A stretch of 64,000 nucleotides of DNA, taken from the NCBI RefSeq assembly GCF_028641065.1, contig NC_073404.1, positions 18,600,001-18,664,000 of the forward strand, written 5' to 3'. Below, in pieces: positions 3,726 to 64,000 of the stretch. This DNA comes from Leucoraja erinacea. Lineage: Eukaryota. The first letter of the stretch is position 1. Every line of letters starts with the position of its first letter. The position numbers and the translations under genes are program-made. The notes beneath the pieces are model-generated. The model saw only the letters and a list, made by a program, of their open reading frames with translations, was not told where the DNA came from and did not search any database.

Positions 3726-19585
<15,860 letters not shown>

Positions 19586-21350: not shown

Positions 21351-22407
21351 CCCTATGAAGCGCCTGATACCCGCTTGAATCTTTCAAAATCTCCAATGTG
21401 ATAAATAACTTAAACAAATAAAACTGAAGCAAATAAAGGCAAACAGAAGAAACAACCTTGGAGGGAGATAGAGAGAGAGATGGGAAAAAATACTAAATAA
21501 GTGACCGTGAATGAGAGACTTACCTGCAAGCCAGCCACTAACCCGTTCAACTGCAGCCCTTAATGACCTGACCCGTTTAAATCCGATACCTGTTTAAATC
21601 TTATCCGTCCACCAATACATCCAAATGGTAATTGGACCCACATCAGACAGCTTTAAGAAATTCTCTGTGAATACCTTTAGTAATACTTGAAGGTCAAAAC
21701 ACAACTGGTGACATATCGTGTTAATACGATGTTAACAGAGACTGTCTCGTGGAAAGCGGAAATTTTAATTAATTTTTTTAACCGAATTTCAAAATCCGAT
21801 TACAAAACATGGGGGAAAATGGTCCCTCACCTTTCAAAACGCGGGCGGGGCGTGTCCCCCTGCCCACACCGGGATTTCCACACATGTCTGGAGAACATCA
21901 ATGTGTGACATTTTGGGTCAGGGCTCTTCTTTTTGTAAAGCAGGGTTTGGGCGTGGAGAGGATGTCACGCTCCTGTTGGATGATTAAAAATGGTGGGGTA
22001 TGGTCTGAGGATGCAGGGTGATACATTGAGGACTGAGGAGAGAGGTGAGCATGTGGAACCCTCCAGCACACTGGCCTGGTGGTTGCGGGAGATAGATGAG
22101 GTGCCTGATGTGGAGGGCACATGGGCCATGGTGGTGCGGAGTGGCGGAAGGGACTCGAAGGGCCGAATGTCCTTGTGCAGCATAGCGTCCACAATGCCAA
22201 TGTTGCCGCCACCGCCGCTTCGGGGGAGTTGTTGTGGTTGCCCGTCCCTGGGACTGGGAGCGGCGGGTCGGGGACAGGAGGCTGTGATTCGAGCCTCCGT
22301 CACCGGCGTCTCCGTCTCAACCAGATCTTTGGTCTCGACGCCAACGGCCGCGCTGCCGTAAATCGGTTGGTGCGCAGCAAAGCTCATAGAGCGGAGCGTC
22401 AGTGTCA

Positions 22408-22622
22408 CTCGGCTCCTCCCGGCGGCTCGGCTCCTCGTGTCCCGGCGACTCGGCCCCACTCGGCGGCTCGGCTCCTCGTGTCCCGGCGACTCGGCCCCAC
22501 TCGGCGGCTCGGCTCCTCGTGTCCCGGCGACTCGGCCCCACTCGGCGGCTCGGCTCCACTCGGCGGCTCGGCTCCTCGTGTCCCGGCGACTCGGCTCCAC
22601 TCGGCGGCTCGGCTCCTCGTGT
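22408..22622 (+). repeat. 41-bp GC-rich minisatellite (~5 units, one extra 18-bp subunit) directly upstream of the NSUN5 ATG
   Basis: Unit TCGGCGGCTCGGCTCCTCGTGTCCCGGCGACTCGGCCCCAC; CCCGGCGA recurs at 22441, 22482, 22523, 22582. Confidence 0.95.
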
Positions 22623-22632
22623 GCCGGCGGCC

Positions 22633-38275
<15,643 letters not shown>

Positions 38276-49033: not shown

Positions 49034-49128
49034 CTATCGCTTCCGTATGTGCTGCCGTCTAGCCTGCAATCTCTGTCTGCCTCCAGTAGATCGAGATCCA
49101 GCTCCTATAGAAAAGGCCGGTGTTGCTG
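49034..49128 (-). CDS. POM121: POM121 terminal coding exon
   Basis: TCTCTCAG|CAG...[30 protein letters not shown]; NAGNAG acceptor. Confidence 0.93.
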
Positions 49129-52100
49129 CTGAGAGAGAAAGAATTGATGTTGGATGGTTAATAACATGTGGAAATTCTTCTTCCTAGACCCGAAACATTC
49201 CTAGATATTACTTCTGTCTCCTGACAAGAGTGTCTGTGTCTTTTTGTTCCTTATATAAGATGACTTAGGAGAATACAACCAGAGACAATGGATAAGGGAA
49301 CAAAACAGAGCACAGACAGAACAATTGAAAGTTAACTCAGCAAAGATTGAGCAATCCAAGTATACGGTAACAATTGCCACAAAGGCACAACTTGTTTTCC
49401 TCTCATAAATGCATCCGAAATGTTGACCATTTCCAGCATTTTATTGTAGCTGGTTAATGCATTCACGACCCCCTTGCAACCAAGTCTCCGTAATGCCACA
49501 ATTCCATGGTCCCAAGCACTGATCCAGACTCCAGCTGCTTTACCCATAATACTCCTTGCATTGAAATAAACACACACAAGTCCTTCAGTTTCAGCATACT
49601 CTTTAATCTCTCCTGCCTGAACTTCATTTGAGACTTACTGATCATAATTTCTACCTTCCTATCAGTCCAAACATTCACTGACATCCTGCCCTTGTTCCCA
49701 TCCCTCCTGCCAATCTAATTTAAACCCTCCTGAGTAAAGAACCTCTGCAAATATATTGATCCCCCTCTAGCTCAGGTGCAACTGGTCCCTCTTGTACAGT
49801 TCACCCAAACTCAGAAGAGATCCCAATAGACAAAAAATCTGAAACCTTGCACCAACTCCTGAGCCACACATACATCTGTCCTACCTTCCTATTCCTACCC
49901 TCGCTAACACATGGCACCAGGAGATGACTACCTTTGAGGTCCTGCTTTTTAACCGTTTGCCTATCCTAAGTGAACTCCTGAGTGATCCTAAATTTCATGA
50001 ACTTGTTTAATTGTTTCATCACATTTTGATTCCTGCCTAAAGGAATAAAGCAACATCGTTTGATATGAGACAAATTCAGAATACAGATTCAAATCAAACA
50101 AACCGCAAATAAATTTTAAAATAAAATGAATTTCAAAATGTCAAAACCTGACCGATATGCTGGAAGTTTTAAAACCAAAGGACGTGCAGACCGAACCCAA
50201 ACTTGCTTTTACTAATGTGGTGGATGAAACGCCCTTGAATTAACTAGCAAACCACCAAGCAGCATCAAATCTACACCAATTAGTGTAGTGATTCAATGGC
50301 TCGACACCTTTTACAGGACAACAAAAAACAGTCAGTAATTACTAATGTTAGCTACATCCTGAAGATGAACAAAGTGTTTCTAATTACACAAACAAAATGG
50401 TGGATTTTCTCACCAAAAGCCGATGCCGCTGCTGTGCCTGTTCCTGGACTCCCAAAGTTCGATGCTGGAGTATTAGTGGTCCCAAAGGAAAAATTTGCAG
50501 TTGGAGTACTCTGTCCAAACCCAGGTGCAGTAGTCCCTGGAAGAACAACATAACAATGGGAGCATCTGTTAAATATCGACTTTATGCAGAAATAGTAGCT
50601 AGTACTAAAATATCCATTCGAAAACTGCAGTTGCAGATTTCCTACTTTCCAATCCCACTATATCTAGCCTCTTCCTCCAGGTATTTATTCCCTTTTTTAC
50701 ATCATTCAACAAAGTAATGACTTTCCTGCTGATCTCATGATTCCCTCAACATCTAACATTCTAATAATTTCCACTTTTAATGCACACTTTAATGGACACA
50801 ATGATGGATTCTAGCTCTCGAGGGAGAATAGTTCCCAAAATTCACAACCAACGGTAATAAAATTCCTCAGCTTGGAATAAATGGCTGACAAATCTGCAAC
50901 TGAAGAATGAAGTAACTTATTCAGCAAAATGAAATATTGATATGTAAGATATATCCCACAAATGGGAGGATATTAGGTGATGTGAAGAAACAGAGGGTCC
51001 TTGAACAGTACATTCACAGATCCTTGCAAGCAGAACAGATTACTAATGTGGTTTAAAAGGCAGGTAACATGCTTTATTTGTTGAGGCACAAAACCAGGTT
51101 ACATTAGAAACATAAACAACACTAGTTGGGCCATTGCTTGAGCACAGTTGCAGTTATTACATTTCTTACTACTGTAAAAGGACATGAGTGATGTACATAT
51201 AGTAATTATTGGCAACTGGAAGACTGCTGTCGATGGTCAGGGTCCCTGGTTGCTGACTGATAAGGAGGACATGAGAAAAGGCAAGGACAAAGGTCAGCTG
51301 GCTGTGAAGAAGGCCCTGGGGCAACAACGGGATGGAAGTTTCCATTATCTCAGTCCACTGCCTTCAGTTGCAGAGACAGTCAAAGCCAGAATGGGGCTCC
51401 GAAGGCACATCAAAGCATGCTCAAAACTGTTGCGCAAAACATATAATCTGTTGTCCCAGGGGAGTGACGAAATGATGCCACAAGGTCTTTTTTACAGTTC
51501 TGGGCACCATGGCAGGAAACAAGTGATTACCATGAGAGGGAGCAGAATATCTTTGCAAAGATGTTGCCAGGACTGGGAGATTTTAGATACATGGAAAGAT
51601 TGGATAACTGGGGTTTTCCATTGAAACAGAGGAGGAAAAGGCAGACAAACAGAGTTGCTGAAAATATGATATTCCCATTTCCTTTAGCAAAGTAGTCAAA
51701 TAAGAGATACAGTTTTGAAAGAACAGGGCAAAGAATTAGCTTGTGATAGGGCTGTTGACAGCTGGTTGAGGCAGAATGGCTCAGCACATTTTAGAAAAGC
51801 ATTTGACATACAGTTGAAATGCTGTGAACATCAGAATTATGGCCCAAACACTCCATTGTGGGATTAAGTTTGCTCTTTCATCATCAGCAGATATATAATT
51901 ATAGCACCATCATAGTCATACAGCATAGAAACAGAACATTTGGCCCAACTCAAACATGCCAACCAAACTGCCCCAACTAAGCTACTTCAATTTGCCTGCC
52001 TTTGGCCCATATCCCTCTAAACCTTTCCTATTTATGCACCAGTCCAAATGTCTTTTGATTGTTGTTACTTCGTGGGCCTCAACTAATTCCTCTGGCAGCT

Positions 52101-55100
52101 CATTCCATATACCCATCATTCTCAGTATGAAAAAATTGCTCACCAGGATCTGATTAAATCTTAGGTCGACACAAAATGCTGGAGTAACTCAGTAGTAACA
52201 GGCAGCATCTCCAGAGAGAAGGAATGGGTGACGTTTCGGGTCAAAACCCTTCTTCAGACTGAATTTCCTATTAAACAATTTCCTATTAAAACTGAATTTC
52301 CTATTAAATTTTTCTCCCCTCACCGTAAGCCTATATCCTTTCGTCCTCAATCCCCCGATCTTGGAAAAAAGACTAATTGCATTCATACTTTCTATTCCCT
52401 TCATGATCCTAACATAACTTGTGTCCAAAATCTATTTGAAATAATGCATTTCCAAATCCTTATCCTATCCATGATGCTCATTCCAAATTATTGCACCTTG
52501 TGCTAAAGCACTGGACACCCTGGAACAATCAAGCTTTGGAAACTGACATGGTAACACTTTCTATCAATTCTTGTCGAATTTCATCTTCTTCTTGCATATG
52601 GCGTGCACAGCCTAAAGTTGTAGGACAACTTGTTCTATTTGATCTTATTTGACTGTGCACGCCGGGTGGATTGCATTTGTCAAACAGGGCGGACCACGTG
52701 AAGGTTGCAATCTTCCACCCCGTCGAATTTCATGGGGCAAGAATATATTAAAAATGGAAAAAACATTTACACTATTGCTCACATTGTCATTATTGAAATT
52801 CAAGATAATAGTTCTATTGTCTATTTGAAAAAAATTGCAAAGTGAACATACTTCTCTAACATAAATAGCACTAAAGCAAAGAGTACCATATCGAAACAAA
52901 ATAACCTTCCTTCCATCTACACTTCACATTGCTCCTACAAGGCCACATTCGTAATCATGGATCAGTCTCTCCAAGGATACTCCCTCTTCTTCCCTCTCCC
53001 ATCAGGCAAGAGGTACAGACGTGTGAAAACACATACCTCCAGATTCAGGGACAGTTTCTTCGTAGCTGTTATTAGACAACTGAAGTATCCAATCACCAAC
53101 TAGAGAACTGCCCTGACCTACCATATACCTCATTGGAGATCCTCAGACTATCTTTAAGCAGACTTTACTGCACTTTATCTTGCACCAAACATTATTCCCT
53201 TTATCCTGCAACTGTACAGGTTCGATTGTAATCGTGTATAGTCTTTCCACTGACTGGATAGCACTCAACGGGCAGCATGGTGGCATAGCGGTAGAGCTAC
53301 TGCCTTACAGCGCCAGAGACCCGGGTTCGATCCCGATTACGGGTGCTATTTATACGGAGTTTCTACGTTCTCCCCATGACCTGCATGGGTTTTCTCCAAG
53401 ATCTTCAGTTTCCACCCACGTTCCAAAGACGTACAGGTTTGTAGGTTAATTGGCTTGGTGTAAATGTAAATTGTCCCTAGTGCGTGTGGGATAGTGTTAA
53501 CGTGCAGGGATCGCTGATCAGTGCGGACTCGGTGGGCGTGTTTCCACGGTGTATTTCTAACCTAAACCAAAAAAAAAAACTTTTCACTGAACCTCAATAC
53601 TTTTGACAAACTAAAATACCGTAACAAAGATAGAATATCATGAGAACATTCTTCTGTTCAAGGTCAATAAGATCTACATTTCCTGCTAATTCCAAAGTAT
53701 TAACAAGGAAAATAACTAAAGGTCATTGGCCATGCAAAGCATTCCCTAGCAACAAAAGCCCCCACTTCCAAACAGCAGCGAAAAATACCATAAAGAGAGG
53801 TGCAGTTACAACACAGACATAGAATCTGCTTGAACAAATTAAAGCAGCTCAACGTGTGTCACATACAAATTTTGATAATCATTAACTTTGCAGAAAAGCG
53901 TATTTTTCATAAAAGTACTCGCTCATCAGATATATGTGCAACATCAGGTTTGGATTGTTATTCCATATCTGCAGTGACAGTGTAATTAAACATAGTATTT
54001 GAAATTGACTTAAGATCCCATGACCTGCGTGGGTTTTCTCCAAGATCTTCAGTTTCCACCCACGTTCCAAAGACGTACAGGTTTGTTGGTAAATTGGCTT
54101 GGTATAAATGTAAATTGCCCCAAGTGTATGTGGGATAGTATTAATTTGCGGGTATCACTGGTCAGTGCGAGCTCGGTGGGTCAAAGGGCCTATTTCCGCA
54201 TTGTATCTCTAAACTAAAAAAAAAAATCAGTTTACAGGATAAAAATATGGCATTTTCCGTAAGATTCTGTAATGCACAAATGACTGCATTTGCATTGTCA
54301 GATGACGTCTAAACTGTGTCCTTGAAATTAAACTGAGAGCAGCTATCTCAACATTAATACAACCAAATTGGTTTCTTTACAAGTCATGGGTTAATTAATG
54401 CAAGTAATATATTGTCCTGACCAAGGAATTATCATTAAAATGCTATTTTAAATTGACATTCATTTTCAAACAATGCCTACAAAGAATGTGAACTGGCTGA
54501 CAGTTTTAGTTTCAGGACAAAGAGGTAAATTCAGTCAAATATGGCACAAAATTATTTAAAAAAAACTCTTCATGAAGTGTCTCAATCTGAAATATCAACT
54601 CTTTTTCAACAGATTCCACCCTTTGAGTGCTTCTAACATTTTATTTTTATTTCTGCATTCATCAGGTCAAGGCTGATTTGATCACTAGTCTCAACTCTAC
54701 TTTCCTGCTTGGCCTGAAAAACCGTTGATTCCCCCATTGTCCAACAATCTCCCTCAGCTTTCATACCCAGCATCCACAATTCATCCAAAACAGGTTTAGA
54801 AACATAGAAAATAGGTGCAGGAGGAGGCCGTTCGTCCCTTCGAGCCAGCACCGCCATTCGTTGTGATGATGGCTGATCGTCCCCAATCAATAACCCGTGC
54901 CTGCCTTCTCCCCATATCCTTTGATTCTACTAGCCCCCAGAGCTCTGTCTAACTTTGTGGAGATTCAGTTTATAATTATACCCAAGACATATTGATAGAT
55001 TGTTCAAATATTATGGGGGTTAAGAGATATGGGATTATAGAAAGGTGGTGCTGGAATACAAGATAAGTTTCAATCCTACTGACTTGCATGCAAACACAAA

Positions 55101-56936
55101 GATCAATTGGCCCACAATTGTTTCTATTCCTTACATTCTTAATGTGACTTCAGTATTCAAGCAGACAGCAACGTACATTAACAAAATCCTTAGTGTAAAG
55201 CTGGAACTGCAGATAGCTGCTTTGCATCAAGGTAGAATTTCTTCCAATGACAGCTTGTAATTAGCACTTAACTCTACTTAGTCCCTCCCCGATTCCTCTT
55301 GAAGTGCTGGTCAGCTGTCGTCTTGAACCACTTCAATCCATTTGGAAAATGCTGTCTATAGTGTAATATGGTAAAGAGTTCCATGATTTAGACTCAATGG
55401 TGGATAAGAAATGCATTTTTAATATGGGTGATTTGAGATTTAATGAAAATGAGCAGGTGATGCCACTTTCTTGTGCCTGCTATCCTTGACGCTCCTGGAT
55501 CATGGGTTTGAGAATTGTTTTGCATCAAGTCTAGGCAAGCAACCGCAGTGTATTTTGTAGATGACACAGTAACCACTACGCACCTATAGTGGAGAAAGTG
55601 AATGTTTGGGATGATAGCTACGGTGTCAATGAAATATTTTGTTTTGTCCTGGCTTTAAGCAACTTGAATTTTGATCAAGCATTTATCCAGGCACATGGTG
55701 AACATTCTGCCACATTTTTGTTATCTGAAAATGGATGGTTCAAGATGTCAGGGGATAATTCATCCTATATGACACAGCACTCTCACTTCTTACCTTTGTT
55801 TATGGCATGTTTGCCATCACAGTGAGAGGTTTTGAGTATAGGAGCAAGGTGGTCTTACTGCAGTTGTACAGGGCCCTGGTGAGATCACCTATTGTGTGCA
55901 GTTTTGGTCTACTAATTTGAAGGACATTCTTGCTATTCAGGGAGTGCAGCATAGGTTCATCAGGTTAATTCCCAGGATGGCAGGTCTGACATATGATGAA
56001 AGAATGGGTCGACTGGGCTTGTATTCACTGGAATTTAAAAGGACGAGAGGGGATCTTATAGGAACATTAAATTCTTAAGGGATTGGACAGGCTAGATGCA
56101 GGAACAATGTTCCCGATATTGGGGGAGTCCAATACCAGGGGTCACAGTTCAAGAATAAGGGGTAGGCCATGTTGGACTAAGACGAAGAAAAACTTTTTCA
56201 CCCAGGGAGTTGTGAATCTGTGGAATTCTTTGCCACAGAAGGCAGTGGTGGCCAATTCACTGGATGTTTTCAAGAGAGTTAGATTTAACTCGGGGTTAAC
56301 AGAATCAAGGGATATGGGGGGGAAGCCCATATGTACCCAAGCAGGAACAGGGTACTGATTTTTGGATGATCAGCCATGATCATATTGACTGACTCGAAGG
56401 GTCGAATGGCCTACTTCTGGACCTATTTTCTATGTTTCTGCTTACACTTAGAAAGAACCAACTGATTTTCTTCGGCGAATTAAGGCACATACAACAATAA
56501 TGCAACTAAAGCCAACTATTATAAACATGATTTTGCAATAAATCAGTATCTAATATGAAACACAATGATAAAGGTGAGAACGTTTCATCCTCATGTATGC
56601 AAATTCATCCTGTCAATTGTGTTCACATGCTGCACAGCCGTACCTGCGACCTGTGTTAAGTGAAAATCAACTGCCGAAGCAGTAGCTAAAGATGTTAGCA
56701 ACTGCTACTTCTATAGAATCTATGCTGTATTTATTAAGCAACTTGCCTTGTTGGAGTAAACAGCAGAGGTGTTAGAAACACATCAAAAAGATTTTCCAAA
56801 GCGCATATTTCTTTTTGCTTACAAGTTCTCATTGCTAGAAAGCAACTAATAGTGAGCAGCTAAAGCTTACAGAACACTGTAGTATTCATGAACTTACCAG
56901 TTCCAAAATTCAAACTGGGAGTTCCAAAGTTGAACC
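49034..56936 (-). CDS. POM121: Nucleoporin POM121, last three coding exons (gene continues beyond the window)
   Basis: Exons 56936-56898, 50536-50414 and 49128-49034; phase-1 GT-AG introns. FG repeats and the diagnostic C-terminus [26 protein letters not shown]. Convergent with NSUN5 as in mammals. Confidence 0.9.
49440..49970 (-). mobile_element. Old CR1 fragment (ORF1/ORF2 junction)
   Basis: [12 protein letters not shown] on minus strand; LYKRD.LHL-like ORF1 remnant. Confidence 0.75.
50414..50536 (-). CDS. POM121: POM121 penultimate exon (FG repeats)
   Basis: TTCCAG|[41 protein letters not shown]|GTGAGA. Confidence 0.9.
52585..52721 (-). mobile_element. Ribozyme-headed short retroposon, copy C
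   Basis: TSD GTCGAATTTCAT at 52573-52584 and 52722-52733; tail GCAAGAAGAAG on minus strand. Confidence 0.9.
52669..52721 (-). ncRNA. Minimal HDV-like ribozyme (copy C, core intact)
   Basis: GGGGTGG-AA-GATTGCA-ACC-TTCACGT-GGT-CCGCCCT-GT-TTGA-CAAA-TGCAATC. Confidence 0.82.
53270..53570 (+). mobile_element. tRNA-derived SINE (HE1/V-SINE-like), full length
   Basis: A box TGGCATAGCGG, B box GGTTCGATCCC, V-domain, CR1-like 3' end; a partial sister copy lies at ~54018-54218. Confidence 0.88.
55830..56440 (+). mobile_element. CR1 LINE 3' fragment
   Basis: [45 protein letters not shown]; CCTATTTTCTATGTTTC tail. Confidence 0.9.
56898..56936 (-). CDS. POM121: POM121 39-nt FG microexon
   Basis: TTTTGTTTCATTAG|GGTTCAACTTTGGAACTCCCAGTTTGAATTTTGGAACTG|GTAAGT = (G)[12 protein letters not shown](G); phase 1-1. 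Confidence 0.75.
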
Positions 56937-58994
56937 CTAATGAAACAAAATGGTGTGTCACCAGCAACAATGTCTTTTGGTTTAATTGCATTTACACTTT
57001 ATCATATTTACAGCATCTTGAGGGAGTTTCATTGATCTCTAATACAATTTTTATAGCTCATTTATAGGTTTCTATAATGGAGCTGGATTGCATTAAGCTA
57101 GTAAACACTGCAGTGTAATCTTACAGCTATCAAACTATGACAGCTCAGCTTCTAAGAGCTACAAACGGATTAATCAAAATTATGTTGTCTTGGAAATAGA
57201 ATCTGTTAAATTAAGCTCTACTGACTGCTTTGTGTAAATTTGATTATGACCATTCAAGACAATTGGAGTCAGAGATATACACACAAAGTGCTGGAGTAGC
57301 TCAGCGGGACAGGCAGCTTCTCTGGATAAAAGGAATGGGTAACGTTTAGGGTCTTCAAAGGGCCTCGACCCGAAACGTCACCGATTTCATCTATCCAGAG
57401 ATGCTGCCTGTCCCGATGAGTTACTCCAGCATGTCTATCCGTGTCTATCCTCGGTGTAAACCAGCATCTCTAGTTCCTTCCAACATAGTCAGAGAGCACA
57501 GAAGCAGGCACCCTGGCCCACCATATCCATGCCAACCATGACATTCCTATCTGAAACTATCTCATTTGCAGGGATTTGGCCAAGAGTCTGTTATATCTTG
57601 GCAATTCAAGTGCTTGTTCAGGTGCTCTTAAATGTTGAGTATACCCACCCTTCAAACTTCACAAGCAGTGGCATTCCAGATTGCACCCACCCTTTGGTAA
57701 AAAATAAATAAATAAAACATTTTTTTAAAATTGTGTTGTATTTGGAACCCTCTAAACCCCATATTCTTTACTTTAAACCTACACCCTCTGATCAGACATC
57801 TTTGCCATCTGGAAATGTTTTGTATTATTTACCCTATCTATGATATTTTTATATACCTATTGGATCTCCCTTAAGCCTCCTCTGCTTCAGGGAAAACAAA
57901 CAAGGCCCATCCAGTCTCTCCTCTTTACAGAAACGAAATGCAGAAACTGGCCCATCCCAGCCAATAACCTGATGAATCCACTCTGTACCTTTCTAGTGCT
58001 GTTGTGCCTTTCCTATTAGTGTGGAAGTGCAATTTGGGATTAGGATTTCCAGACGTGCAGCTGATCTCATGTCATTACTATGCCCAATTTCTTTAAACTT
58101 GCCAAAAATTATTAGGCAGGGTGGAGAAATACTGCAGAAGTAACATCAATTTGTACTCAGTGATCTTTTGAGATATTACAGATCAACAGTAATGTATCAT
58201 AAGAATTCTTACCCTTCTCTATTCAAATGAATGCATGAGGAACTAGGACAATGATGCATGCAGTCAGCAACTTCACAAAACTTACACATAATTCATTATG
58301 TTTGCTCAAAATGTGGACTGTTGATTAGTTAAAAGATTTAAAAAAGTAGGAATAAACAGATCATTTTAGGGTTTGTGGGCTCTCATTTTGAATTTTACAA
58401 GAATTAGCACCAAAGCCCCAGCTGTTCCTAATCGATATCAATGATGCAGTAAAGGGATCATGTACAATATATCTGAAATTGCTCTTGAAACAATGCTTGG
58501 AGGAGTGCAAATTGAGGAGGATGAAACAGCAAGGATGATATAGGCAGGCAAAGATATGGTAAGATGTGCAGTCATCCACTTCAGAAGCAAAATACAGAAG
58601 TATTCAACGTCTACCAAAAGGTCGACGTAATTTTCTAGCTGGTGTCTAGAACTTAAATAACAGGATGGTCTCTGCCATCAGATAGCAGATATTGATTAGT
58701 GTTTTTACCTACCTTTAAGTTTTCCTCTGCACAAATTTAGCTCAATTACTAGAACATTACTTTTCCAACGCTTGAATAATGAAGAAAGCACAATACGTTT
58801 TTTTTTTAACACCCTCCCCGTCCCACACCCAGGATTCACCAATGCTGAACACTGTCTACGTTAAAGCTGCAAAAGGAACCCAGATTAGTCAAAACATTAC
58901 TGGGCCCAGGGGCTTCTGTATCAACCAACCCCTGGGTTTTCAGCCAAGTCTCACAAAAAAATGCCTTTACAGAAACAAGTATTAAATCATAACA

Positions 58995-60519: not shown

Positions 60520-62115
60520 CCTCGAGATGTTTCTACAACTTGATTGGAGTCCACCAGTGGTAAATTAAATTGATTGGACATGATTTGGAAAGGCATGTCA
60601 GAGCAAAAACCAAGCCATCAAGAAGGATTAATTGTCCGTAGACCTCCGAGACAGGATTGTGTCGAGGCACAGATCTGGGGAAGGGTATAAAACAATTTCT
60701 GCAGCATTGCAGGTCCCGAAGAGCACTGTGGCCTCCGTCATTCTTAAATGGAAGAACTTTGGAACCACCAGGATTCTTCATAGAGCTGGCCGCCCAGCCA
60801 AACTGAGCAATCGGGGGAGAAGGGGCTTGGTCAGGGAGGCGACCAAGAACCCGATGGTCACTCTGACAGAGCTCCAGAGTTCCTCTGTGGAGATGGGAGA
60901 ACCTTCCAGAAGGACAACTATATCTGCAGCACTCCACCAATCAGGCCCTTGTGATCGAGTGTGTAGTGGCCATTTGGCTTGTTTTGTGTGGCATGTGTCT
61001 TTACATTTTAGACTGCCTGTTTAGTTTGGGACCAGCATGGAGAAGGTTTACCCTTTGACCATGCAAAGCGAAACTGAGACACGAGGAGTTTTCTAACCTT
61101 TAATGCAATAATCTGGAATTCGATTAAGATTATAGTGTACGAGTCGAAAGAAGTTTGGATGTACCTTATTGCTTTTCATCAAAAATAAATAATTTATTAA
61201 TCAAAGGGCTGCGTTTTGAAGACTTATCTGTGAAGAAGCTCTGAAGGTCTCGGACGGTGAGCTCACATGCGTATAAAGACATTTCCCTTAACCATGCAGT
61301 CCATTTAGCGGCTAGAGGGAGTAATCTCTTGAACGATATAAAAATCTGCCGCTAGAGAATGGCCAGACGGAAGACACTCCTCAGTTAAAGGCACATGACA
61401 GCCTGCTTGAAGTTTGCCAAAAGGCATGAGAAACAAGATTCCCTGGTTTGATGAAACCAAGATTAAACTCTTTGGCCTGAATGCCAGGCGTCACGTCTGG
61501 AGGAAACCAGGCACCGCTCATCACCTGGCCACGGTGAAGCATGGTGGTGGCAGCATCATGCTGTGGGGATGTTTTTCAGCAGCGGGAACAGGGAGACTAG
61601 CCATGATCGAGGGAAAGATGAATGGAGCAAAGTACAGAGAGATCTTTGATGAAAACCTGCTCCAGAGCATTCTGGACCTCAGACTGGGTCGGAGGTTCAC
61701 CTTCCAACAGGACAACGACCCCAAGCACACAGCCAAGATAACGCAGGAGTGGCTTTATGACAAGTCTGTGTATGTCCTTGAATGGCCCAGCCAGAGCCCG
61801 GACTTGAATCCGATGGAACATCTCTGCAGGGACCTGAAAATAGCTGTGCATCGCCGTTCCCCATCCAATCTGACAGAGCTAGAGAGGATCTGCAAAGAAT
61901 GGAAATTACCCAAATACAGGTGTGCCAAGCTTGTAGCGTCATATCCAAGAAGACTTGAGGCTGTAATCACTGCCAAAGGTGCCTCAAAGTACTTAGTAAA
62001 GAGTCAGAATACTTATGTAAATGTGATATTTCAGTTATTTCTTTGTAATTACTAAGCAAAAAATTATAATCACCTGTTTTTGCTTTTTTATTATGGGGTA
62101 TTGTGTGTAGCATTG
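60520..62115 (+). mobile_element. Tc1 (DD34E) transposon, TIRs truncated, transposase split by a ~400-bp insert
   Basis: LSVDLRDRIVSRHRSGEGYKTIS..GRPAKLS (paired HTH); WFDETK, HGGGSIMLWGCF, QQDNDPKH, WPSQSPDLNPME with 34 residues between the second D and E. Confidence 0.95.
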
Positions 62116-62210: not shown

Positions 62211-62410
62211 TCAAGAAGGAACTACAGATGCTGAAAAATCGAAGGTAGACAAAAGTGCTGGAGAAACTCAGCGTGTGCGGCAGCATCTATGGAGCGAAGG
62301 AAATAGGCAAAATTTCGGGTCGAAACCCTTCTTTCGGCCTGAAACGTTGCCTATCTCCTTCGCTCCATAGATGCTGCCGCACCCGCTGAGTTTCTCCACC
62401 ACTTTTGTCT
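62211..62410. mobile_element. Penelope-derived fold-back insertion with 14-bp flanking duplication
   Basis: ACAGCAACACATGT at 62197-62210 and 62411-62424; ~80-bp inverted arms (62245-62325 vs 62333-62412). Confidence 0.8.
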
Positions 62411-64000
62411 ACAGCAACACATGTCCTCAGGCAGGGTGGTTCCCTGATACGCCTATTTTTGGTTTGGGAAGGTATGATCTCGAGGGATATATTATTGCAA
62501 ACTGTGGAATTGGTTGGACAAATAGGTGGAGGTAGGAGAGAGGGGAGTGTTTGTAGATGTTACCCCTGGCAACCACTCTGCCAGAGATCATCGGTTGCCG
62601 GTCTTAATTTTCTTGGTCTTTTCTCAACTCCCCAGTTACCCCCCCCCCCCCCCCACTTTCATTTTGAAGAAAGGTCCTAACCCAAAATGGCACATATCCA
62701 TTTTCTCCAGAGGCTCTGCTGCGTTATTACTATGTATCTATCTTTTATATAGAGATTATACGAGTTGTGTGGTTCATTGAACATGCTGCAAAAATTCCAA
62801 TTAGATAAAATACTCCTGTAAATCCTTTTGCTGTCCTTGATTCAGCTGTCTCTCAATGGTGATTTTTTACATATTGCCCCTCAATTTCAATATTTTCACC
62901 AGTACTATTGATATGTTCAATGCCTTTTTTTTTTTACCCCAAGATAGGAATTAGGATACATGTTCTCCTTATTTGCCCACAAAATCTGCCAGCCTACCCA
63001 GCGTTACCCTGGAATTCCCCAAGTTGATATATGCATGCCTTCCTCTTACAAGAGTAAAATCTCAGCTGGGATGCATTCCATTGTCACCTTCCAAAACGCT
63101 CTTTGAAATTGTAATTCATGCCAGCTTCCGACAAGCACAGTCCTTGGCACCGGTGAGCCTCAAGGACCCAGGCACATCCTCAACCACAACCTCTGCAGTA
63201 CTTTCTCCAAGTTACCAGGCTGATGTCATCAGAAATAGTCCTTTTTAGGAGTTGCAGCTAGTGCTGGGGACTTCACTATCTTCACTGCTTAAGTTGATTG
63301 AAATGGGGAGACTGTCATATTATTGTATGTTACATTCGACAAGACAGGGAATTCAGCACAATACTACATTGTCGGCAAGAGTAAAAACTGACCCTACCTG
63401 AGCCACCGCTAGAGAGTTCCATCAGGTATATGCCTTATTTAATTTTCATTATGGAGATTACTACCATCTTTAATCCACACGACACATCACTGTTGATATC
63501 TTCATTTCAATCCAACTCCTGATCAACCACTACCACCTCATCCATTCCTTCATTCCTAAATTGCCCATCTCCTTCCCCAAACAATCTACAAGACATGCCC
63601 TCCCCTGGCCTCAACACAACTCTATCACACCACCCAATCTCACCATTTGCGATCTCATCTTGAAGGGTTTCAACACGAAACATCACCTATTCCTGTTCTC
63701 CAGGGATGCTGCCTGACCCGCTGAGTTACTCCAGCTTTTATTGTCTATCTTCATCGCCTTACATGCTGCACATTTCCCTTACTCCACTCACTGCACTGAA
63801 ATCACATCACCTCTCCCTTCACAATCCATCACCACACTTTCCCTAAATAATGCTTCATTGCTTCCCAAACTTAATTTGTCCTCGACCCTCCCAACCTCCC
63901 ATTCCAAATCCACTCTGTGAAAGTCTCCCTTTCCACATCATAATCCTATCTTCAACATGTCATTCGTAATTAACCCACACTACTCAAAAGATTTGCATCA

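Follow-up and report, generated by a model that had tools for sequence, protein, structure and literature searches.

The 53 nt studied here are very probably the 5′ head of a young copy (copy C) of a 137-nt retroelement in which both ends of a Vingi-like LINE are combined; this head, a predicted HDV-like fold without P4, likely cuts its own RNA just before its first base, G1. Copy C lies in an intron of a POM121 gene, on the strand of that gene, and its position there is likely a chance insertion and not a switch for gene control. In the following, the window denotes the whole 64-kb stretch of DNA that was analysed; it holds two further copies of the element, A and B (Table 1).

Table 1. Features of copy C, its surroundings and the two other copies in the window
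Feature	Position	Strand	Evidence
HDV-like ribozyme fold without P4, 53 nt	52669..52721	-	descriptor; compensatory changes in relative L272; predicted cut between 52722/52721
Whole non-autonomous element, copy C: head and part of LINE 5′ UTR, short middle, LINE 3′ end	52585..52721	-	
5′ copy of 12-bp target site duplication (TSD); last bases able to extend P1 across the cut site	52722..52733	-	
3′ copy of 12-bp TSD	52573..52584	-	
CACCC directly following P2′, able to pair instead with the 5′ strand of P1; sub-lineage marker	52664..52668	-	
Hairpin of the body with an outer stem of 13 bp, its 5′ arm derived from the LINE 5′ UTR and its 3′ arm from the LINE 3′ UTR	52600..52663	-	
3′ end common to partner LINE: ORF end, 3′ UTR, AAG repeat tail (52593-52585)	52585..52623	-	
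POM121 39-nt FG exon (predicted), upstream of the insertion	56898..56936	-	splice borders, FG coding
POM121 FG exon, downstream of the insertion	50414..50536	-	splice borders; RNA-type contig
Copy A, own TSD, L3 changed; sense in intron of NSUN5-like gene	26743..26874	+	
Copy B, ribozyme broken in P3′/P1′, own TSD; sense in intron of NSUN5-like gene	36334..36464	+	

The Fold at the Head of Copy C

The initial annotation had described a complete ribozyme with all helices, L3 and the catalytic C, and direct reading together with a pairing descriptor gave the same parse, i.e., a complete HDV-like nested double pseudoknot without P4. P1 is formed by 52721-52715 and 52692-52686 (7/7 pairs, including G1·U and one U·G), P2 by 52712-52706 and 52675-52669 (7/7, all Watson-Crick), and P3 has three of three pairs and a plain 7-nt L3 (TTCACGT). 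J1/2 is 2 nt long, P1.1 consists of one G at 52685 with a single potential pair, a 5-nt loop takes the position of P4, and J4/2 reads CAAA with its C, at 52679, in the catalytic position. The locus therefore has the nesting of P1, P2 and P3, the G1·U/C pair, the P1.1 G and the catalytic C heading J4/2 and followed by N-A-A that mark HDV-like ribozymes, and also the missing P4 and short L4 of the minimal (theta-type) form. The word “intact”, which had been applied to the locus, is right for the helices, L3 and the catalytic C but not for L4, which is 5 nt long in copy C and 6 nt in the family and the LINE, a loss of 1 nt. Copy C was the sole descriptor match on either strand of the window, in a scan run without shuffle control. 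Rfam, searched with E up to 10, returned eight matches within the window and none at the copy C locus, and nested folding of the isolated 53 nt with ViennaRNA, which cannot model the pseudoknot, was no better than that of shuffles (z -0.08).

The variation among copies and relatives fits selection on the fold, as far as can be judged from sequence. Among 57 copies the second base of J4/2 varies freely, the two A’s that follow are kept in 55 and 56, and the C in the catalytic position is found in 52, the exceptions being attributed to CpG decay. P1′ shows U-A in 13/57 and U·G in 41/57, and helix changes within the family are one-sided only. Compensatory changes come from outside the family: in a metagenome relative with 45% protein identity, L272, the region before the ORF parses into the same topology, and by manual parsing 9 of 17 pairs show two-sided changes (shuffles gave 0 matches). 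Covariation is thus seen in one relative and, by eye, in Vingi-2_Gav. A sequence alignment of L272 with copy C ignored structure and was left unused. The ribozyme descriptor gave one match on 77 metagenome loci, and none in 17 of the 18 with a visible 5′ end, also when relaxed. Positions 2-74 of Vingi-2_Gav, as printed in the supplement of PMC5786205, give an HDV-like parse by eye with the same L3 as the family, the family’s commonest J4/2, a P2 of 8 bp and a longer P4 region; in the main-text passages on this 5′ end it is not termed a ribozyme (PMC5786205).

It is therefore predicted that the heads of the family are self-cleaving ribozymes cutting just before G1. One may instead suppose that an internal promoter determines the 5′ end and that the fold is a vestige across the whole family, and the Pr77 of L1Tc/NARTc, as described, is indeed promoter and ribozyme both. 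We consider this improbable, as L272 and Vingi-2_Gav carry compensatory changes and the catalytic-position C persists, both of which fit selection on the fold.

A 137-nt Mobile Element

The 53-nt head is the first part of a 137-nt insertion with a GAA-type tail, and the 12-bp TSD flanking this insertion ends exactly at G1. In the 2.19-Gb genome the ribozyme core (28 nt) is matched exactly 2,837 times and the tail motif (18 nt) 7,402 times, equally on both strands; reversed-pattern controls gave 0 in both cases. To these counts a sample was added, for which the first 70 loci matching the tail were taken on contig C1 regardless of head; two pairs among them look like local duplicates. A head was present in 57 of the 70 loci, the full descriptor was passed by 14 (20%) and at most one defect was found in 24. 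Scaling 14/70 to the 7,402 tail matches gives about 1,500 copies as intact as copy C. A TSD of at least 8 nt (median 13) flanks 45 of the 57 head-bearing loci; its end coincides with G1 at 25 of them, lies 1-3 nt inside the G run at 18 and falls short of that run at two. That insertions start at the predicted cut site is an indirect sign that the fold works in the family. The 137-nt element thus has dispersed copies, TSDs and a repeat tail, and lacks coding capacity. Copy C differs from the family majority at six positions, which places it among the closest quarter of 58, and its best relative elsewhere in the genome is 98% identical; it is intact because it is young. TA skew as a proxy for orientation bias in genes was 0.003 ± 0.009 in near-intact (n = 24) and 0.008 ± 0.010 in defective copies (n = 33); with its weak and inconsistent calibration this proxy is uninformative.

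Several other forms of the family were seen. Several copies (among L007-L011, L025, L027, L028, L047) have identical flanks and TSD on different contigs, being one insertion multiplied within a larger repeat. At L081, G000:C19:38555674 and C25:23200081 P2′ continues directly into the reverse complement of the element’s first bases, and such copies are fold-back or template-switch products. A shorter version of about 78 nt, in which the ribozyme is joined almost straight to the tail, occurs with a TSD at L088 and L089. At least two further short families (L040/L098, L101; L100, L105-L107, L109, L111, L113, L121, L123, L124) have the same head and tail with other middles, nearer to the LINE 5′ UTR, and are independent internal deletions.

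The Partner LINE

A LINE sharing the element’s tail was found through the tail pattern in non-family upstream context; there are 687 first-look candidates, 30 of which were read. The tail of the element was present in 29 of these 30 LINE 3′ ends, in 28 of them directly after the ORF stop, and is up to 100% identical to that of the element over 40 nt (L136, L161). The corresponding non-family pattern behind the head gave 101 matches, and the 30 read were short-element variants or truncations, with no LINE among them. Ten LINE 5′ ends were fetched; the head stands at the start of six, and head and tail together were found in three. The first ~76 nt of the element match six of the ten at 80-87%, and one LINE copy (L178) sits within an 11-bp TSD. 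The element thus has its 5′ and its 3′ end in common with one LINE, and because both ends are shared it is a bipartite internal-deletion derivative of a Vingi-like LINE, of the NARTc/RIME type.

Pfam recognised an endonuclease, a reverse transcriptase (RT) and a weak zf-RVT in seven open LINE pieces and found no RNase H in them. The nearest database protein (1,019 aa, 72% identical) is encoded on a 3,344-nt contig, and the layout of endonuclease and RT without RNase H is identical in 16/16 aligned homologues; all LINE copies seen carry stops or frameshifts. A single ORF with APE and RT and without RNase H, as in the partner LINE, is the layout of Vingi and is also true of RTE. The sequence motifs of the partner LINE favour Vingi over RTE. 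The RTs in PDB are only those of L1, R2 and a group II intron, with neither Vingi nor RTE among them. The Vingi ORF is described as single, of ~1,000 aa in an element of ~3 kb, with APE and RT and without RNase H (PMC13708176). We call the partner LINE Vingi-like, an assignment that draws on the layout of its domains, on sequence motifs and on a single published 5′ end and not on a tree with named references. RTE had been considered as the partner, a guess from the GAA tail, and was set aside: its layout is compatible, but the motifs and the 5′ end of Vingi-2_Gav favour Vingi.

The LINE copies have some peculiarities of their own. An inverted ribozyme-bearing 5′ piece lies directly upstream in 5 of the 30 LINE 3′-end loci (L135, L145, L147, L150, L163), and also at L128 and L131; one of the five runs into an endonuclease-like ORF start. 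Twin priming would be expected to leave such pieces. At L179:384-632 (+) and in L135 (+, ~2035-2500) the reading frame of the LINE continues open across the ribozyme, with an in-frame ATG that spans J4/2 and P2′ upstream of a second ATG, and it is likewise open across the ribozyme of L272 (54-230), where an in-frame ATG lies in the P4 region. Eight nucleotides of the LINE 5′ UTR can pair with a complementary stretch of the 3′ UTR (L177-L186), and the short element joins both as a 13-bp stem (window 52663-52600), longer in the sub-lineage of copy C. The body hairpin closed by this stem has a folding energy of -29 kcal/mol (z -6.17, reached by 0/200 shuffles). An end-to-end pairing of LINE RNA through this complementarity is possible.

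Flank Pairings and the Activity of Copy C

The five bases after P2′ were said in the initial annotation to be able to pair with the 5′ strand of P1, to differ from those of the other copies and perhaps to damp the ribozyme. Folding predicts the pairing: when copy C is given its native flanks, the nested ViennaRNA ensemble has the 5′ strand of P1 bound to the 3′ flank at 0.78 and P1 formed at 0.21, and the alternative helix is slightly better than P1 (-16.1 vs -15.4). When the A of the family was set in silico, the 3′ alternative fell to 0.01 and P1 rose to 0.94, a shift of ~0.9 kcal/mol. A second competitor, absent from the initial annotation, is the end of the 5′ TSD, which lengthens P1 beyond the cut site and occupies the G of P1.1; with CACCC reverted, the 5′ flank pairs over the cut site at 0.94.

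The supposed peculiarity holds against copies A and B and fails genome-wide. CACCC occurs in none of the 57 head-bearing tail-picked loci, but among 235 non-A variants a count by eye of the first 100 found it in 19, and six other copies at unrelated sites carry it together with four further markers of copy C. These six, which start at G1 and in five cases have an exact TSD ending there, come from 102 copies that were parsed and among which close relatives of copy C are over-represented. A private change of copy C was therefore rejected. CACCC is an inherited sub-lineage marker and no adaptation of the POM121 locus, and its source still made RNAs starting at G1. What stands of the proposed damping is the folding prediction; as a feature specific to this locus it does not hold, since the six copies share the motif. 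Damping by flank pairing is plausible in the folding model, and silencing of copy C by CACCC alone is not.

Within its native flanks copy C could still have little or no catalytic activity, with CACCC, the 5′-flank extension of P1 and the short L4 turning it into a misfolded passenger. The low P1 probability, the better alternative helix and the pairing over the cut site that remains after reversion all speak for this, and flanking sequence is described as inhibiting Pr77 ribozymes in vitro (PMC4035085). On the other hand, the gap between native fold and ensemble in copy C, estimated at -3.3 kcal/mol without pseudoknot penalty or tertiary term, ranks ninth of 15 intact copies, an equally strong 3′ alternative exists in 3 of the 14 others, and the CACCC sub-lineage spread with its 5′ ends at G1. 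We regard a dead copy as unlikely, though as a reading that deserves weight. Copy C probably still cleaves, though at a slow rate owing to competition of the two flank pairings with the active fold.

The Host Gene

Sense orientation within a POM121 intron, as originally annotated, agrees with the Pfam POM121 matches on the minus strand and with the exon borders. The Pfam model matched four minus-strand exons 6-14 kb to the right of the window, three of them over the cut-off, and had no match elsewhere in the genome. On single exons Pfam left the N-terminal and FG exons of POM121 unrecognised, and a family search recognised POM121. Both exons bordering the intron have AG/GT borders and encode FG repeats, and the phases of the large FG-rich exon, these two exons and the last exon at ~49130 are consistent. 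An RNA-type contig from another organism joins the downstream exon to the last exon at 49128; the 39-nt exon is absent among the RNA pieces listed. Among raw poly(A) reads of another species, neither starts nor ends accumulate on the stretch, and the exons are left without coverage. Reads on the element stem from other copies, as 69/69 and 133/142 differ at 52668, and are thus uninformative on copy C. Contigs beginning at 52721 mark assembly breakpoints of a repeat rather than starts of RNA.

The position of copy C raised the question of a CPEB3-like role, in which the host would keep the ribozyme active and cleavage of the intron would tune POM121 mRNA output. The CPEB3 ribozyme is a functionally conserved, single-locus ribozyme of mammals located 9,931 nt before the next exon, with a half-life (Cpeb3) of 2-3 min matched to transcription at 3.5-4.1 kb/min (PMC10919898). 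Copy C resembles it in having an HDV-like fold on the sense strand in an intron of a protein-coding gene (PMC10919898), here a gene of the essential type, with all helices kept, and intronic ribozyme cleavage is reported to reduce splicing efficiency (PMC10919898, citing Fong 2009). Furthermore all three copies in the window, two in the NSUN5-like gene and one in POM121, are sense to their hosts, for which the chance is 1 in 8. The CPEB3 ribozyme is, however, one conserved locus (PMC10919898), whereas copy C belongs to a mobile family of thousands; 20% of the tail-picked loci are equally intact, the divergence of copy C is ordinary, the L4 loss included, and relatives 98% identical to it exist elsewhere. 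The predicted cut is also only 2,185 nt from the next 3′ splice site. At the published rates for Cpeb3 this distance corresponds by our own arithmetic to ~35 s and ~13-19% cut transcripts, on a mammalian rate that may not be that of a cold-water host. Nothing marks retention of this one young copy by the host, and the CPEB3-like role that had been suggested is very unlikely. As the splice site is so near, any effect on POM121 mRNA would amount to a minor, incidental reduction.

We favour instead a mobile element that reached the intron by chance. In its life cycle host polymerase II would transcribe through a sense copy, the pseudoknot would fold and cleave to leave a 5′-OH end at G1, and the element would thereby be freed from the host transcript. 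The endonuclease/reverse transcriptase of the LINE would then recognise the common 3′ end and, through target-primed reverse transcription, insert a copy of the element RNA elsewhere in the genome.

Comparison with Known Systems

HDV-like ribozymes at the head of retroelements are well documented, i.e., Pr77 heads L1Tc and NARTc, and R2 and RTE have similar heads (PMC6765202, PMC4035085, PMC5786205); by analogy, the family head may work like these. The closest parallel is found in the NARTc/RIME SIDEs of the L1Tc/ingi clade, which are likewise short and non-coding, contain both ends of a LINE, carry an HDV-like head and TSDs, and have G1 of the fold as their first base (PMC4035085, PMC5786205). 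Their head is 77 nt long, as described, whereas the predicted head of the 137-nt vertebrate element has 53-54 nt and no P4, and the partner LINE here is without RNase H, unlike the L1Tc/ingi partner. In the Vingi clade (Vingi-1_EE derivatives, Vingi-2_Gav) the ORF layout and the existence of bipartite short derivatives are alike (PMC5786205, PMC13708176).

In its fold the head is closest to the minimal or theta ribozymes, which also lack P4, have a short J1/2 and a catalytic C heading a 4-nt J4/2, and measure ~53 nt (PMC10879173). Nearly 99% of these are in Caudoviricetes phages, often after a tRNA, and the theta study, which among eukaryotes searched human, mouse and protist genomes, gives their occurrence there as undetermined or absent (PMC10879173). 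Theta ribozymes cut at the 3′ end of a tRNA in a phage genome, whereas copy C lies in a vertebrate intron; a tRNA search of 50000-57000 found none. The loss of P4 in the family head is likely independent of phages and derived from the LINE ribozyme.

What is new may be the family itself, in which a P4-less HDV-like head, so far almost only seen in phages, has multiplied in a vertebrate genome. The literature on Vingi, HDV-like and minimal ribozymes and retrotransposons, as far as its accessible text goes, describes no such family and no Vingi ribozyme; Repbase/Dfam, Ruminski 2011 and Kojima 2011 may cover either. A wider reading, to which we give somewhat less than an even chance, is that a Vingi-like LINE shrank its ribozyme to the P4-less form and that the 137-nt parasite then seeded ~1,500 active self-cutting RNAs, the sense intronic copies, copy C included, using host promoters and cutting pre-mRNA. 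If this is true, the ~1,500 copies amount to a library of natural mutants and put the tolerance of introns to cleavage to the test across the genome. Thousands of independent insertions could also show whether active sense intronic ribozymes are purged. The 137-nt unit marks the minimal cis sequences needed by such a LINE. That Vingi 5′ ends are ribozymes, as suggested here, bears on Vingi-based platforms for gene insertion in which the native 5′ UTR is kept (PMC13708176). For POM121 itself there is probably no consequence.

Other Features of the Window

Three copies of the element in 64 kb are far more than the genome mean for exact-tail copies (~1 per 300 kb). The window contains a RING/B-box/SPRY gene (3729-19585, minus strand), an RsmB-type methyltransferase gene (22639-37100, plus strand) and POM121 from 49036 onward (minus strand), an order which we take to match that of TRIM50, NSUN5 and POM121 in the human Williams-Beuren region. 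A GC-rich tandem array of 18/23-nt units (22367-22648) closely precedes the NSUN5-like gene’s start codon. Two regions, 1929-2282 and 60536-62052, the latter inside the POM121 gene, are by their motifs presumably Tc1/mariner-like transposase fragments. Another SINE occurs at 62245-62412 as two copies arranged head to head, which make up a hairpin of 81 bp (91% complementary, 6-nt spacer) that yields spurious miRNA matches in Rfam.
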